Shown here: positions 8,475-27,586 of the stretch, piece after piece | Layout of the letters: the number at the start of each line of letters is the position of its first letter | Numbering within the stretch: position 1 is the stretch's first letter | Source: a virus | Taxonomy: Duplodnaviria > Caudoviricetes | IMG/VR virus record: IMGVR_UViG_3300027283_000007 | Coordinates: 1-28,685 of that record | DNA length: 28,685 nucleotides | Direction: 5' to 3' (one strand) | Notes under the pieces: model-generated | Databases searched by the model: none | The model's input: only the letters and a program-made list of their open reading frames with translations | What the model was told of the DNA's origin: nothing | Program-made: the position numbers and the translations under genes

Positions 8475-8497
8475 GATAAGTTTCCTTATTTTTAGGT

Positions 8498-8523
8498 AAA
8501 AAAAAGCCCACCGAAGTGAGCCT
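8498..8523 (-). terminator. Intrinsic terminator after the HNH gene
   Basis: Minus strand reads GGCTCAC-TTCG-GTGGGC followed by eight Ts. Confidence 0.85.
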
Positions 8524-8548
8524 TGTTTGTTTTAAATCTAGTTTATGT

Positions 8549-9289
8549 TTACGGCATGTCAGGCCAATAGCGATTGGATTTCATGACATTCTCTAAATAT
8601 GGTATTACCTGAATGTTATTCTCAACGTGAAGTCCGCACACTAATTCTGAATTTATCGGAACGATATGATCAACATGCCACTCTAATCCGGTCAGTTTTG
8701 TCCTTAATCTAGCTAAGTCATAAGCCTCTTCTATAAAAAATTCATTAGCCCATGGCACCGAAGCATTTTGCATCAAGATTCTTCTGGTTCTATACCAAAA
8801 ACTGACCTTATCGGGATTGCCTTGCCTGTACTTTTGACGTATAGCCTTTACTTTTCCCTTGTTTTTAATCTTCCATTCTTTTTTTACAGCATAGTATCTA
8901 TCTTTGTTTAAAGAGTAAGCAATTCTGGCGCAATATCTTCTTCTTTCCTTTCTAATTTCAGTTAGAAACAACTCTTTCCACAACAGAACATGAGACTCAT
9001 GAAGCGATTCAAGAAAAGATTTTTTCTTGCTTCCCAGTCTTAATTTCCGTTGTTGCGATATTTTTTCTTTATTCCAATAATAGTGCCTGTTTGAATCCGC
9101 TCTTAATTTTTCTCTGTTTTCGTCGGCATACTGACGTCGACTATCCTTTCTTCTTGCATGGACTTCTCTCTGATAAGCTGGGTAGCATGTTTTGCATTTG
9201 TTGCCAAACCCGTCTTTTCTGCTCTTGTCTTTGTTGAATTGAGATACGTGCTTTTGTTCTTTGCATATGCTGCAAGTTTTTTGATTCAT
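8549..9289 (-). CDS. Free-standing HNH homing endonuclease
   Basis: N-terminal CxxC...CxxC, basic helical linker, C-terminal WHVDHIVP...CGLHVENNIQVIP...N..KSN; AT-rich relative to its neighbours. Confidence 0.88.
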   Translation of the reverse strand: MNQKTCSICKEQKHVSQFNKDKSRKDGFGNKCKTCYPAYQREVHARRKDSRRQYADENREKLRADSNRHYYWNKEKISQQRKLRLGSKKKSFLESLHESHVLLWKELFLTEIRKERRRYCARIAYSLNKDRYYAVKKEWKIKNKGKVKAIRQKYRQGNPDKVSFWYRTRRILMQNASVPWANEFFIEEAYDLARLRTKLTGLEWHVDHIVPINSELVCGLHVENNIQVIPYLENVMKSNRYWPDMP

Positions 9290-9391
9290 TTCTGATTCCT
9301 TATATCAGACCTTATTGAATGGTGTGCGGAAAGACAGTAAGGTGCTGTCTTTGTCGGTCGGCCAACCTATCCGCACAATGCAATTATATCA
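9290..9391 (-). promoter_or_regulatory. Extended -10 promoter plus structured RNA leader (copy A) of the HNH gene
   Basis: TG-A-TATAAT (TATAAT at 9388-9383). Closing stem TGTGCGGA/TCCGCACA encloses GGTT-GGCC-GACC and AAGACAG-CACCTTA-CTGTCTT. Two TAAGG sites follow before the ATG. Confidence 0.75.
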
Positions 9392-9401
9392 CATACTCTA
9401 G

Positions 9402-13674: not shown

Positions 13675-14733
13675 TTAGATAGATTTAAGCTTTGCAGCGG
13701 TAGGGAATTGTGTTGCGAAATCAGAAGCCGCCGCCGCATCATGCGCCATTTTTGGCTTCTCGGCTTTTGCTGTGGCCAGTTTGATTATCGATGGATAGGC
13801 GGACGGGTGAACGCCGGTCACATCGATGTTCAGATGATCAAGCGCCAGCTTATAAACGGCTTCGGCGCTATCCATCGCGGCCACTTCGCCAATGATCGGC
13901 GCCACATCCTTTTCGGCCTGACGGATGGCTTTGAACTTATTCATCGCGGCATCGTGAGCGGCGTTGATAGCTGCATCCATGGCTTTTTTGTCGTCCTTCT
14001 CTTCTTCTTCGTCGTCCTCATCCTCGGCAACGGCTTCCTCTTCTTCGGTCTCTTCCTTTTCGGGCTCAGCGTCGCCAGCCAGCATTTTGGCGAGTTCTTT
14101 CGGATCAATAGCCGCGTCTTGCGCCAGCTTCAGCGCTGCGGCCAAAAGTTCTTCTTTGGTCATTGGTTTGTTCTCGGGTTGTTTAAAAGGGTCTGAATCG
14201 GAAACAACACAGTCGCGGCCAGCTCTTCCAAGCTCCACAATCGCCACATGATTCCCGATGATATTGCGCATCACTCCATCGAATTTAACGCCTTCAAACT
14301 CTCCTGGTGTCATATCGGGCGTGTAACGGTAAGCACAGGACAGTTCACACTGTTCCTTGGTCTCAATGCCGGCAATCGCCGCCGCATCCCAAACCACAAG
14401 CGAGTTGCGAAGGAACGGCTTAACGAACTCGGCATCAGTACCGGTACTACCGACTACGTTTTCCTTTTTCGGGTCGTCAGCGGAAACCGGGACATGCCGA
14501 TCCAGCAAAGGGATGTGATTAAATGAGGCGGCGCCTTTGGCCAGTTCTTCCGGATCACGCAGCAATTGATAAATTCGGTCGGCATCCAGTCCGAGTTCTT
14601 TATGCCCCGGTATCTCGCGGCCATAATAAGGATTAACGGTGGCCTTACTGATGTTCGACATAGCCACATGCAAGCGGCCATCGGCATCGACTGTGCGTGA
14701 CGAGCGATCAAAGGCTAGCAGTAATTCAGGCAT
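13675..14733 (-). CDS. DUF2213 prohead protease/scaffold-like protein
   Basis: NPYYGREIP, ELSCAY and GNHVAIVELGRAG motifs, followed by an acidic/helical scaffold-like C-terminus. Confidence 0.85.
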   Translation of the reverse strand: MPELLLAFDRSSRTVDADGRLHVAMSNISKATVNPYYGREIPGHKELGLDADRIYQLLRDPEELAKGAASFNHIPLLDRHVPVSADDPKKENVVGSTGTDAEFVKPFLRNSLVVWDAAAIAGIETKEQCELSCAYRYTPDMTPGEFEGVKFDGVMRNIIGNHVAIVELGRAGRDCVVSDSDPFKQPENKPMTKEELLAAALKLAQDAAIDPKELAKMLAGDAEPEKEETEEEEAVAEDEDDEEEEKDDKKAMDAAINAAHDAAMNKFKAIRQAEKDVAPIIGEVAAMDSAEAVYKLALDHLNIDVTGVHPSAYPSIIKLATAKAEKPKMAHDAAAASDFATQFPTAAKLKSI

Positions 14734-14790
14734 GGCTAGGCTCCATCAGCAAAAAATCCGTGGATACCCCTATAACACATGCGCTATCGG

Positions 14791-14825
14791 TGCTATATAA
14801 TCGAGTTTCAATCATCAAAGTGGAG
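14791..14825 (+). promoter_or_regulatory. Promoter -10 and RBS of the opposite-strand moron
   Basis: TATAAT at 14796-14801 and GGAG at 14822-14825 before ATG 14832; no clear -35. Confidence 0.55.
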
Positions 14826-14831
14826 TACGAA

Positions 14832-15209
14832 ATGTTATTAGGAATTTTGGCGGTACTATTCGCCGCAGTCTTTTTCAGAGAACTGAAATTACTGCTGGTT
14901 CTCTTGTTGTTGGTACTGGTCTGGAATTTTCCGACCGCTCAGGCCGGGCCGGTTGTCGATAAAGAGTTAGAGCAATGCGCCGGTATTGCGGCCATGGCCA
15001 GTACCGTGGCCAGCGTAAGAAACAATCAATTGCCCGCACAGGCGGCGATGCAGATCGCCACAGGGCAGTTTGGATCAGGGTCTAAATGGAATTTCCCAGA
15101 AGAGGGGATTCAAGGGGTTGTTGATATCATTTATGACTCAGGATATGCGAGTCCGGACCAGGTCAAAGAGTCCGTGTTTAATGAGTGCTACAAGCCGGCT
15201 AATCGTTGA
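14832..15209 (+). CDS. Moron: membrane-anchored or exported protein (125 aa)
   Basis: Start moved from 14697 to ATG 14832 because of the RBS. Two hydrophobic segments, an AQA signal-peptidase-like site, then a helical domain bracketed by two Cys. Confidence 0.75.
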   Translation: MLLGILAVLFAAVFFRELKLLLVLLLLVLVWNFPTAQAGPVVDKELEQCAGIAAMASTVASVRNNQLPAQAAMQIATGQFGSGSKWNFPEEGIQGVVDIIYDSGYASPDQVKESVFNECYKPANR

Positions 15210-15984
15210 ATCCGACCAGAATAGCGGAATCGGTACATCTGCAATTGTTTTCCATTCCTGGATGTGTCCATTTGCCATCCAGGAACATGCCCTTACGAAT
15301 ATCGTAAACCTCGCCATCAGCTTTCAAGTGTGACGGTCTCGGGGTTTTACCCGCGTGTGAATGATGCCAACGCGCGTGGGTCAGGCCCATATCAAGCCGC
15401 CGCGTTCTGTTGAGCGTGGCAGTGGCCTTGTTGCTCTGGTCCTGCGCGATAAGAATCGCCCGTTTACGCGTCAATGCGTAGCGTTTCTGTAACTCATCGG
15501 TCAACGTTGACAGCTTTCGGCCTTGCTGAACCGACCGCATCACCAGCCCCTGTACGTCCGTCAAATGCTGCTGAGCAATCGACTTGATTAAGCCGACCTG
15601 CTCATTGATCACGGCAACATAGGCGTTCTGCATCGATTCGGTCATTGTGAACTTCACGGCAAAGCCCGAATCCTTAAGGATTCGTTGTAGCGATCCGTCA
15701 GAGTAATTCTTCGTCTTTTGCGCGAACCAGAGCGCCAGCTTTTCGGCGCCCTCGTCAAAGTTTTTCAGCCATTGCTTGGCCAGCTTGTCCATGACTTCTT
15801 GAAGCGCGTCTGCTGGTATAGCATCGTCCTGGGCAATACCGGGATAATTGGCCTTGTAGGATGACGTCAGCCAGTACGCGATTGATTTGTGCATTTCACG
15901 CACCAGCTTTTTAAGTCGGCGTTGGTATTCGGCGCTGATGCCGGCATTGGGATAGACGGGCTTAAGCGTTTTTGTGTTTTTCAT
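15199..15984 (-). CDS. Head morphogenesis protein (MuF / SPP1 gp7 family), short form
   Basis: RAILIAQDQ, W.HS....PRPSH...DG and PG..NNCRC motifs; no C-terminal toxin extension. Confidence 0.9.
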   Translation of the reverse strand: MKNTKTLKPVYPNAGISAEYQRRLKKLVREMHKSIAYWLTSSYKANYPGIAQDDAIPADALQEVMDKLAKQWLKNFDEGAEKLALWFAQKTKNYSDGSLQRILKDSGFAVKFTMTESMQNAYVAVINEQVGLIKSIAQQHLTDVQGLVMRSVQQGRKLSTLTDELQKRYALTRKRAILIAQDQSNKATATLNRTRRLDMGLTHARWHHSHAGKTPRPSHLKADGEVYDIRKGMFLDGKWTHPGMENNCRCTDSAILVGFND

Positions 15985-16138
15985 TGAGTAATGAAATGCA
16001 ACCGGCCAGCACGACCTTAAACAAGTCAGGTTTATTGTTAAACCAGTTGTTTAAGGTCTGAGTGCTGACACCGGTTATTTTTGAGACTTCGGCAAGGTTT
16101 TTAAGCCCTGCCGACCTTGCCGCTTCTGATGCGGTCAT
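15962..16138 (-). CDS. Small HTH regulator (Aca-like context), 58 aa
   Basis: MTASEAARSAGLKNLAEVSKITGVSTQTLNNW; ATG 16138 overlaps the stop of the acidic ORF (ATGA). Confidence 0.8.
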   Translation of the reverse strand: MTASEAARSAGLKNLAEVSKITGVSTQTLNNWFNNKPDLFKVVLAGCISLLNEKHKNA

Positions 16139-16293
16139 AGTGTCACGCCAACCTGATTCCATTCATCATCACATAACGCAACAAGGAAACCGCGCGTCTT
16201 ATAATCATCAACAGCTATATCAAATTGATCTTCGTCGTCAATGTCGATTTCTTCAAATATTTCAGAGTCTTTAAAATATGCCTTTGCTTTCAT
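16135..16293 (-). CDS. Small highly acidic protein (52 aa), anti-defence candidate
   Basis: Below the ORF-track cutoff. MKAKAYFKDSEIFEEIDIDDEDQFDIAVDDYKTRGFLVALCDDEWNQVGVTL has 15 D/E and 5 K/R. It fills the gap exactly and is translationally coupled to the HTH gene. Confidence 0.75.
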   Translation of the reverse strand: MKAKAYFKDSEIFEEIDIDDEDQFDIAVDDYKTRGFLVALCDDEWNQVGVTL

Positions 16294-16309: not shown

Positions 16310-18328
16310 TTAGTAAGTCAAGTTATTTATCTTTGCAATTCGATTGTTTAAATATAAAGACAATCCGTAGTGCTTATCATGTTTAGATGCTTCTTCATCA
16401 AACTCTTCAAACATCTTCAACATTGCTTCATTTGTGTTTGTTATGTTGTGCCGCTTTGCCACATCCCTAAGAACTGTTTTCACATAAGGCAGAGGCGAAC
16501 CGTTTTTCAAAAATACAACATGATTTACGGCCTTATTAAATTCTTCTGTGGCTTGCTCTGTAGTTCTCATTTTCTTACCCTCATCGGCTTTGTTTGATTC
16601 GGGTTTATTATTGCTCTCTTTCCTTGTTTCTGTCAAATTATTTGATGCTTTAGGGGCAATATCCTTCTTTTCAACATCCTTTGACTTGCTCTTAACCTTA
16701 GAAAACGTCTTGCCATTCAGCTTTCCGCCAGCGCCGCCAATAACCTTGCCTGAGCCATCGATCAACACTCGCTTGCCGGTGCGCTCGCCATTATCCGGAT
16801 CTTCGCCGCCATTGACCGTAATCCAATGCGCGGCATCCATCGCGGCCTCCGCTTCATCGTCGTCGTCAAAATCCGCTTCCCCGGTCAAGCCGTCATACCC
16901 GCTATCGGGATCATTCGCGATGCGCTGCCGTGATTCGTCGGGGCTGATGACACCGCCATCAATCAACGTAACATCGGTATCCGCATTGATCTTCCTGATA
17001 TTGGCTTTCTGCTCATCGCTCATTTCTTCCAGGCTTTCAAAATCGAAGGTGATATCGTCGTCAATTTCCCCGAACTCGGAAAGCTGAATGATATCGATAA
17101 CCTTTTTCAACGGATCTCTTAACAGCGCCTCTTGAGCTGATGCAATGTCGTCGTAGAAAACTTTTATTTCGCCATCACTGGAGGCATTGAGGCCGCTGGG
17201 CGTAATGCCCAGAAACTTAACCAGCGGAATGCTTGACACAGAGCTCATATGTTCCTGTGCTTGGGCCTGCAACTCATGAATGCCAGATAGCGGCGTATTG
17301 AACTGGAAAAACTCCTCAGTATCCTTGTCCAGCAGCATCAAGCCGCGATTATCCCGCAAGTTGTTGAACAGCTGCGCACGGGCGATAAACTGCGCGTCAT
17401 CCATGCCCGACAACACGCCCGACATGTTGGTCATAATGCCGGAGACTGAAAACGAGTGCAGCAGATCGGACACGGAGTCACGCGTACGGGTCCAGTTATT
17501 CACATACGGTTCGGCCATCTGCGTCATTGAAAGACCGCCGAAGTTGTAGGCCGCTTTCAGCAAGTCTGGCACTTCCCGGCTTACGAATGTCAACAAGCGC
17601 GAACTGTGAACCGTTTTACCAAGTACATACCACGCGGACGGACGGTAATAGTTCTGGGCCAGCGGATCGGTAGAATTGTAATCGCTCGGATACGTCCAGA
17701 CCGGCTCAATCACTTTGAAACCGCGTAAAGCACCCTTTTTGATCTTCGCTTTATCAACCAGCAGAACGGTTTTTAGCTCTTCCGGGTCTTCCGACGCCAC
17801 GCCACCATTCGGCGTTTTAACATCGATGTAAATTTGTGCGCGGCCATAGAGACCGTCAAGCTCTATTGCCTTTTTGAACAGGTCCTTAATTTTGTGCTTT
17901 TTTAGGGCGCCTTCAATGGCCTTGATTCTCTCGTCCTTGTCGCCTCCCGTGGACTGTAACTTAATCCATTTACGCGTCATCTCCTTGGCCGGTACTTCGC
18001 TCATTTTCCGGTATTCCGGCAATGTGCCCAGAACGGCTAAATTCTGGTAGCCCTGAAAATGATTGCCGGCATACGCCTGATTCACGTAATCATAGGGCGT
18101 TGAGTCCATAGCCAGCGCCTGCGAGCGCTCATCCGCTGGAATAACGCCTGCCGGTGGCTCATAACGGGTAATGAGTGCTAATTCCTCATCCTGCTCCGGC
18201 AATGTTCTTGCTAATGCCGATAAGCTGATGCCCTTGCGCCGCACTTCAGCCGGAACTGGAGCGCGTACCGTTACCGCCTCGGCTTTCTTGCTCTTGCCGA
18301 AAAGTTTCTGTTTCAAGCGTTTGATCAT
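16310..18328 (-). CDS. Portal protein (DUF1073 family) with a ~175-aa C-terminal extension
   Basis: Follows terL; VHSSRL and KFLGITPSGLNASSDGE motifs. The core ends in an acidic tail near residue 495, after which an unrelated extension begins. Confidence 0.88.
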   Translation of the reverse strand: MIKRLKQKLFGKSKKAEAVTVRAPVPAEVRRKGISLSALARTLPEQDEELALITRYEPPAGVIPADERSQALAMDSTPYDYVNQAYAGNHFQGYQNLAVLGTLPEYRKMSEVPAKEMTRKWIKLQSTGGDKDERIKAIEGALKKHKIKDLFKKAIELDGLYGRAQIYIDVKTPNGGVASEDPEELKTVLLVDKAKIKKGALRGFKVIEPVWTYPSDYNSTDPLAQNYYRPSAWYVLGKTVHSSRLLTFVSREVPDLLKAAYNFGGLSMTQMAEPYVNNWTRTRDSVSDLLHSFSVSGIMTNMSGVLSGMDDAQFIARAQLFNNLRDNRGLMLLDKDTEEFFQFNTPLSGIHELQAQAQEHMSSVSSIPLVKFLGITPSGLNASSDGEIKVFYDDIASAQEALLRDPLKKVIDIIQLSEFGEIDDDITFDFESLEEMSDEQKANIRKINADTDVTLIDGGVISPDESRQRIANDPDSGYDGLTGEADFDDDDEAEAAMDAAHWITVNGGEDPDNGERTGKRVLIDGSGKVIGGAGGKLNGKTFSKVKSKSKDVEKKDIAPKASNNLTETRKESNNKPESNKADEGKKMRTTEQATEEFNKAVNHVVFLKNGSPLPYVKTVLRDVAKRHNITNTNEAMLKMFEEFDEEASKHDKHYGLSLYLNNRIAKINNLTY
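16607..16645 (-). promoter_or_regulatory. Sigma70-type promoter embedded in the portal CDS, with a palindromic operator over the -35
   Basis: TTGACA (16636-16631), 18-nt spacer, AATAAT (16612-16607). Perfect inverted repeat TCAAAT-n-ATTTGA at 16633-16645. GAGGG RBS before the in-frame ATG at 16570. Confidence 0.7.
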
Positions 18329-20476: not shown

Positions 20477-20576
20477 TTTGAATCCCTGAACATGGGTGAA
20501 CTATTGAGTTGGTGCGGTGCTGGCTGTTCAGTTCCAGACGGGGCAATTACTCCCTCACCGCATGAATATTATAGCA
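20477..20576 (-). promoter_or_regulatory. Extended -10 promoter plus structured RNA leader (copy B) of the GIY-YIG gene
   Basis: TG-C-TATAAT (TATAAT at 20573-20568). Closing stem TGCGGTG/CACCGCA encloses GGGAGT-AATT-GCCCC and CTGG-AACTGAACAG-CCAG. GTTCA and TGTTCAG sites follow before the ATG. Confidence 0.72.
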
Positions 20577-27506: not shown

Positions 27507-27586
27507 TTTGTTACCTCTGTACTAGGTTATGAAGTGTAGTACCGGGACAGCTTCCAACAGCTTTCCCGGTGCGTCCAATTATAGCA
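27507..27586 (-). promoter_or_regulatory. Extended -10 promoter and hairpin leader of rha
   Basis: TG-C-TATAAT (27586-27578); hairpin ACCGGGA-A-AGCT-GTTGGA-AGCT-G-TCCCGGT; ACCT/AGGT pairing over the RBS. Confidence 0.6.

Follow-up and report, generated by a model that had tools for sequence, protein, structure and literature searches.

The P3 loop of a structured leader RNA, encoded ahead of an HNH/endonuclease VII-like gene in a phage contig, very probably pairs with two sites downstream of it and controls the gene, as judged from the way loop and sites vary together among relatives. Each of the two sites covaries with the loop, and selection therefore acts on both pairings. This covariation is evidence of pairing; it gives neither the sign of the control nor whether the pairing occurs in cis or in trans. 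The stretch of DNA analysed, called the window throughout, is 28,685 nt long.

The leader and its cassette

In the window the portal, neck and tail-sheath genes all lie on the minus strand. Between the neck gene (56% GC) and the sheath gene (54% GC) sits an AT-rich stretch of 927 bp (8475-9401) with 37% GC, in which the leader has the neck gene upstream and the HNH-like gene downstream. Neck and sheath genes are 24 nt apart in three relatives (L444-L446, neck protein 53% identical), and the stretch is therefore an insertion. Its elements are an extended -10 site, the leader, one gene of 246 aa and a hairpin resembling a terminator. The gene (8549..9289, minus strand, 37% GC) is free-standing and matches phrog_1035, 'endonuclease VII', with an E value of 1e-17; many cultured-phage relatives of its product carry the annotation HNH endonuclease. 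No Pfam family matched the gene, and a sequence search of the PDB with the protein gave nothing significant. By its family match and the insertion missing from relatives, it is a predicted HNH/EndoVII-like homing endonuclease. An intrinsic-terminator-like hairpin followed by a T run (8495..8524, minus strand) closes the cassette. Two other small inserts were noted among the head genes: one is a plus-strand ORF (14697-15209) that has a TATAAT site of its own, the other a short HTH gene on the minus strand (15962-16293). The portal ORF (16310-18328, minus strand, 672 aa) extends about 200 residues beyond the Pfam portal domain, and this tail matches phrog_62 weakly.

The leader runs from 9377 to 9290 on the minus strand and the ATG of the gene is at 9289. 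A sequence-only reading had described a three-way junction, its loops, two target sites and a Shine-Dalgarno (SD) hairpin here, and all of these were found on the minus strand where it had placed them. Upstream lies an extended -10 promoter-like site, TGATATAAT (TGnTATAAT type; 9383..9391, minus strand), from which transcription would begin close to the 5' end of P1; a sigma-70 scan detected no -35/-10 pair at the leader promoter, only the extended -10. The int-alpA-like three-way junction (9323..9377, minus strand), delimited by fold, by model score and by pair counts, consists of P1 (9377-9370 with 9330-9323), P2 (9367-9356) and P3 (9350-9345 with 9337-9332). The P2 loop, GGCC (9360..9363), is self-complementary and a candidate RNA-RNA dimer loop. 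The P3 loop, CACCTTA (9338..9344), is predicted to be unpaired and is the variable guide loop. It is followed, after P1, by a G-free linker of 8 nt, predicted single-stranded (9315..9322), and by the proximal target T1, TAAGGT (9309..9314), predicted unpaired and able to form 6 bp with the P3 loop. The distal target T2, TAAGG (9298..9302), is the SD itself and can form 5 bp with the same loop. T2 lies in a hairpin, P4, of 6 bp and -4.1 kcal/mol (9309-9304 with 9296-9291), whose 7-nt loop ATAAGGA (9303-9297) holds the SD, and the last base of T1 is a base of P4 in the window copy. The SD is predicted to be unpaired within the P4 loop, not buried in a stem. All these elements are on the minus strand. 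The fold of the leader region beats shuffled sequences (z -2.70), with 2/200 shuffles equally good. The best ViennaRNA fold shifts the register of P2, giving the loop CCGA; the GGCC register proposed earlier is backed by the family alignment.

Covariation of the loop with two downstream sites

Relatives were collected with a scan pattern that fixed the junction only; the loop and the downstream sequence were never specified. The 313 pattern matches (scan repeats included) yielded 187 representatives with less than 75% identity and sufficient downstream sequence, of which the 176 with a single P3 hairpin were retained and 11 dropped. Since the pattern requires a G at the base of P3 and the window copy has A-U there, this copy was added on its own. 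A match of at least 5 nt to the loop was present in the proximal interval of 128/176 cognate pairs against 9.3% of non-cognate ones, and in the distal interval of 103/176 against 14.1%; a far control interval gave 6/174 against 5.3%. The best match of a loop within its own next 45 nt averaged 5.57 nt, compared with 4.00 in the regions of other members, and two sites of at least 6 and at least 5 nt were found in 82/176 members versus 3.3%. In a permutation test the summed score was 10.03 against 6.89 +- 0.12, the maximum in 10,000 permutations being 7.42. The signal is also present in 29 members that share no loop 5-mer (proximal 20/29, distal 16/29) and in 62 loops without an anti-SD word (proximal 40/62, distal 27/62). 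In the 40 nt upstream of the leader the loop match is at background (3.83 versus 4.00 non-cognate), as is a sense control. The cognate region ranked first for only 39/176 loops, because many relatives share loops, and was in the top 5% for 108. Covariation between loop and targets among homologues, on which the sequence-only reading had staked its proposal, is therefore strong at both sites. The two-site score of the window loop was reached on only 5/176 downstream regions of other members; this rarity, together with the family-wide covariation, indicates that its match to the targets exceeds chance. Of the 176 members, 40 fall short of two sites; the 136 two-site members considered below, with 101 distinct T2 words among them, include the window.

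The positions of the two sites are also alike across the family. T1 lies 5-17 nt after P1 in 127/136 two-site members, the window included, and starts 8-12 nt past P1 in 110/136; the linker has a modal length of 7 nt and contains 5% G. Longer P3 arms go with a slightly larger T1 offset (rho 0.22, p 0.011). In 116/127 members an ORF begins no more than 25 nt past T2; among these, T2 overlaps the best SD pairing in 94/116 and misses it in 22/116. The starts of T1 and T2 are 11-15 nt apart in 92/116. A stem of at least 5 bp surrounds T2 in 56/116, against 12.1 in spacer shuffles and 6% in chimeras, so that the SD held in a hairpin loop, already pointed out for the window copy, is on these predicted folds a family trait. 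Pairing with the anti-SD is stronger in the T2 region (-7.40 kcal/mol) than in the T1 region (-4.64). T1 is longer than T2 in 81 of the 136 members, equal in 32 and shorter in 23. The idea that T1 is the thermodynamically stronger site found no support, as the duplex energies do not differ (loop:T1 -8.54 and loop:T2 -8.27, p 0.24; T1 stronger in 59 and T2 in 50 of 116); energy therefore gives T1 no preference as the cis site. Finally, a -10-like hexamer is found 4-22 nt upstream of the leader in 58/176 members, versus 5/176 at a control position.

Relation to int-alpA, distribution and cargo

The window leader is, by its junction and model score, a divergent relative of int-alpA (RF02996), below the cut-off of that family. 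The int-alpA motif is reportedly among the candidates of Weinberg et al. 2017, and its name presumably reflects an integrase/alpA gene context, unlike the HNH cassette seen here. Rfam, which types int-alpA as 'Gene; sRNA', gives it the same three-way junction with the junction letters UA / GAnAA / (C)U, and the window copy shares both, with a compensatory A-U at the base of P3 where most members have G-C. Further, the Rfam consensus has a CCUU loop and ends in AAGGG, that is, at T1 and complementary to its own loop, so its authors may have noticed the loop:T1 pairing, and the 2017 study may already show it; the model itself contains no loop pairing, and neither P4 nor T2/SD nor the start codon is part of it. 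The available part of the main text of Weinberg et al. 2017 (PMC5737381) does not name the int-alpA motif. A literature search with most subscription papers outside its coverage found no published account of a function for int-alpA or RF02996, and no description of a two-site or dimer mechanism.

An Rfam scan of the window locus returned no c4, c4-2, c4-a1b1, IsrK or int-alpA match, the first four being the families that the sequence-only reading had named for a check. Against int-alpA, whose gathering cut-off is 35.8 bits, the window copy had no match at E <= 10. We built a model, R1, from 50 relatives with the window copy excluded; it scores the window copy at 56.8 bits (E 1e-14), the next match in the window being at 10.3 bits. 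Three sets of hand-picked relatives contained 10/20, 6/10 and 6/10 sequences passing the int-alpA cut-off, and another set 0/10, with two at 32-34 bits. The novelty expected of the leader holds only in part: the window copy itself is without an Rfam match, but relatives of it exceed the int-alpA cut-off. In 101 model-aligned matches, 83% of cells pair compared with 66.4% in shuffles, and two-sided changes occur at 13/17 pairs, both figures coming from an alignment that leans to the model and in which the P1 and P2 cores are fixed by the search pattern. The members fall into two junction subtypes, GAAAA with a 2-nt 3' junction strand and GACAA/GAUAA with a 1-nt strand, and an A-G mismatch closes P1 in 33/176 of them.

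Scans with junction patterns found at least 120 viral and at least 120 genome loci, and one strict pattern gives estimates of about 380 viral and about 220 genome stretches. The record titles, many of them of MAGs and with labels taken as given, name Alpha-, Beta- and Gammaproteobacteria, Planctomycetota, Acidobacteriota and Desulfobacterota. A first pattern, made from the window copy, matched nothing beyond an identical record (L057). A BLASTN search of cultured phages with the leader gave only chance-level pieces, and no E. coli homologue of the L103 leader was found. At 51.9 bits, a leader was located before a homologous nuclease gene in the cultured Aeromonas phage 62AhydR11PP (MH179474; L454:611-707). 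The loop of this leader is not anti-SD-like, yet it matches two downstream repeats, and the phage is a usable test system.

Of 49 loci searched upstream of genes related to the nuclease, 4 had the leader; the starting set numbered 56, from which identical and nearly identical records had been removed. Behind the leaders of the family we collected 111 downstream ORFs, many of them cut by locus ends. A Pfam match was obtained for 25: 15 to HNH, NUMOD, GIY-YIG or AP2 families, 3 to helicase or AAA, 4 to HTH, and one each to replication protein O, DUF559 and CapR. A PHROGs scan of 46 of the 86 ORFs without a Pfam match gave 6 nucleases, 4 families of unknown function and 36 ORFs with no match. The leader is thus portable, and it is often, not always, ahead of nucleases. 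The proposal of a loop antisense to its own RBS and to a second site accordingly stands as regards the covariation and the conserved SD hairpin, but by Rfam match and target layout the element is not of C4, CI or IsrK type, and it is not specific to nucleases. Upstream of nuclease relatives in five loci (L016, L017, L034, L038 and L042) there are other structured leaders, unmatched by R1. This distribution suggests that leaders are exchanged among these nuclease cassettes. Two leader copies per contig were seen in L059/L060, L138/L174 and L334, with different loops in every pair; we do not count this as evidence, because unrelated pairs rarely cross-match.

Possible modes of action and a second leader

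Two sites for a single loop call for either two states or two molecules. A cis pairing with T1 is in keeping with the short, fixed linker and with the weak dependence of T1 offset on P3 length, and a palindromic P2 loop with the docking of a second copy. A palindrome of at least 4 nt is present in 46/77 distinct P2 variants (116/177 members), where shuffling of the loop letters gives 27.9 +- 3.8 (0/5000 shuffles as high), a significance that is overstated since the variants are related (16 carry GGCC). The tetramers are of 14 kinds, GGCC, GATC, TGCA and CGCG among them; 31/77 variants have no 4-nt palindrome. P3 loops are depleted of palindromes (21 versus 37.3). Two sites occur in 98/116 members with a palindromic P2 and in 38/61 members without one.

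The reading that we prefer, tentatively and as somewhat short of an even bet, is that the leader represses translation in a self-limiting way, with a second copy of the RNA blocking the RBS. On a new transcript the P3 loop would reach back across the G-poor linker of about 7 nt to T1, the earlier-transcribed of the two sites, leaving the SD open and allowing an incoming phage a short burst of protein. As leader RNA builds up, a second copy, full-length or trimmed, would pair its P3 loop with T2 inside the P4 loop, probably after docking through the self-complementary P2 loop, and the loop:T2 pairing would lock the SD and stop translation. The presence of two sites would then reflect two loops, one from each molecule, and the variable loop would act as a separate address for each cassette. 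In favour of this reading, besides the covariation and the P2 palindromes, are the P4 CI precedent for a processed RNA that acts in trans on the transcript it comes from (PMC4825925) and the identified cargo of nuclease, replication and HTH genes. Against it stand the equal duplex energies at the two sites, the P2 variants that lack a palindrome, the members without two sites or with T2 off the best SD, and the want of an evident route to a short RNA. The more specific proposal of a recodable, RNA-only feedback device of mobile DNA, in which a palindrome-mediated dimer clamps both sites over the RBS with two guide loops, is possible but on the whole doubtful. If it were true, each selfish cassette would gauge the number of its transcripts and switch itself off, the loop serving as an orthogonal address; the orphan int-alpA family would gain a mechanism unlike C4, CI or IsrK, and a second leader in the window, described below, would be another scaffold for the same logic. 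Beyond any one mechanism, the pairing gives the catalogued int-alpA motif a covariation-backed target; the motif is also extended by a further target, by a hairpin around the SD and by a self-complementary loop. It offers a possible answer to the question of how promoter-bearing homing-nuclease cassettes inside phage operons limit their own expression. An element of about 90 nt with a swappable code of 5-7 nt lends itself to testing and might be used as an orthogonal part for translational control.

A purely intramolecular two-state switch or timer, in which the loop pairs with T1 when the SD is open and forms a kissing contact with the P4 loop at T2 when it is shut, is unlikely, though it asks for nothing beyond the anatomy seen: two covarying sites, fixed spacing and near-equal duplex energies. 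Co-transcriptional folding would give such a switch a brief translatable period. It leaves the enrichment of P2 palindromes unexplained, and it gives no reason for the high diversity of the loops, for which neutral drift is possible.

We consider distinctly less likely a free antisense RNA in the manner of C4 or CI, in which a processed junction RNA of about 55 nt would bind T1 and T2 in trans, with no dimer, and block translation or trigger termination. P1 starts at the predicted transcript start and closes a compact domain, Rfam types int-alpA as an sRNA, and there is a precedent in P4 CI, a processed RNA whose pairing with seqA, on its upstream side, and with seqC, on its downstream side, brings about termination (available portion of PMC4825925). 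Phage P1 C4 is described, in the available portion of PMC8198154, as required for full ant repression. As far as these sources describe them, both resemble the window leader as structured phage RNAs at the 5' end of an operon that pair with two sites of their own transcript. The CI targets, however, flank the RNA and act on termination, whereas here both targets of the single loop lie downstream, one of them on an SD in a hairpin loop, and the loop has no upstream target. A terminator-like U run follows P1 in only 30/176 members and the excess of CCA after P1 is weak (21 versus 11.6), so there is no evident route to a short RNA; in the window no terminator-like site was found between P1 and the gene. 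The narrow spacing of T1 and the P2 palindromes would also go unexplained. By analogy, then, the window leader would work like C4 and CI without being a member of either, since it fails their sequence and layout tests.

Activation of the IsrK kind is more improbable still. IsrK of Gifsy-1 is, like the window leader on the preferred reading, both a leader and a trans regulator of its own downstream gene: its short form, made by a terminator, activates its own long transcript in trans by pairing over about 30 nt (available portion of PMC4825925). Transferred to the window, P4 or a cis loop:T2 pairing would be the off state, and another copy bound at T1, beside the 5' arm of P4, would open the SD; the base that T1 shares with P4 would suit such an arrangement. 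The pairings here are of 5-7 nt, a loop directly on the SD would block and not free it, and the locus has neither an IsrK match nor an IsrK-type terminator. A different comparison is offered by the T4-type homing endonuclease genes I-TevI, segB and mobE, whose RBS is buried in single stems that are bypassed by a late promoter (available portion of PMC2988022). In those genes the translation of a homing endonuclease is held down by RNA structure at its RBS, as it would be here; unlike those hairpins, as far as that source describes them, the window hairpin holds the SD in its loop, as the target of a separate, recodable guide loop.

That the loop is merely anti-SD in character, with repeats derived from local duplication or a DNA-level site, is very improbable and largely refuted by the covariation tests, for although many loops hold CCU or UCC and the window loop is anti-SD-like, covariation is still seen when the loops lack anti-SD words and when the comparison is with non-cognate SDs, neither the sense nor the upstream control rises above background, and the helices covary, G-U pairs included.

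The window contains a probable second leader, copy B (20477..20576, minus strand), before a GIY-YIG/NUMOD3 gene and with a different junction; its loop (20533-20524) matches sites of 5 and 7 nt near 20501-20497 and 20492-20486, a sum reached on 0/176 downstream regions of the family. The suggestion that this copy and the first (copy A) belong to one sequence family was abandoned: copy B scores 5.4 bits on R1, the two share no repeat family, and their loops do not cross-match. Probably copy B shares with copy A only the logic of one loop and two sites. It had no Rfam match, a pattern scan for it returned a single stretch (L430) without the downstream design, and no leader of its type was seen by eye in 12 GIY-YIG relatives. 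Among GIY-YIG relatives, L435 and L436-L438 carry int-alpA-type leaders. A third structured leader headed by TGnTATAAT lies at 27507-27586; the opposite strand of this stretch has a weak Rfam match to PtaRNA1 (28.4 bits, E 0.071, cut-off 47). The leader itself, on the minus strand, precedes a Rha-family gene and has a short anti-SD hairpin over the RBS.
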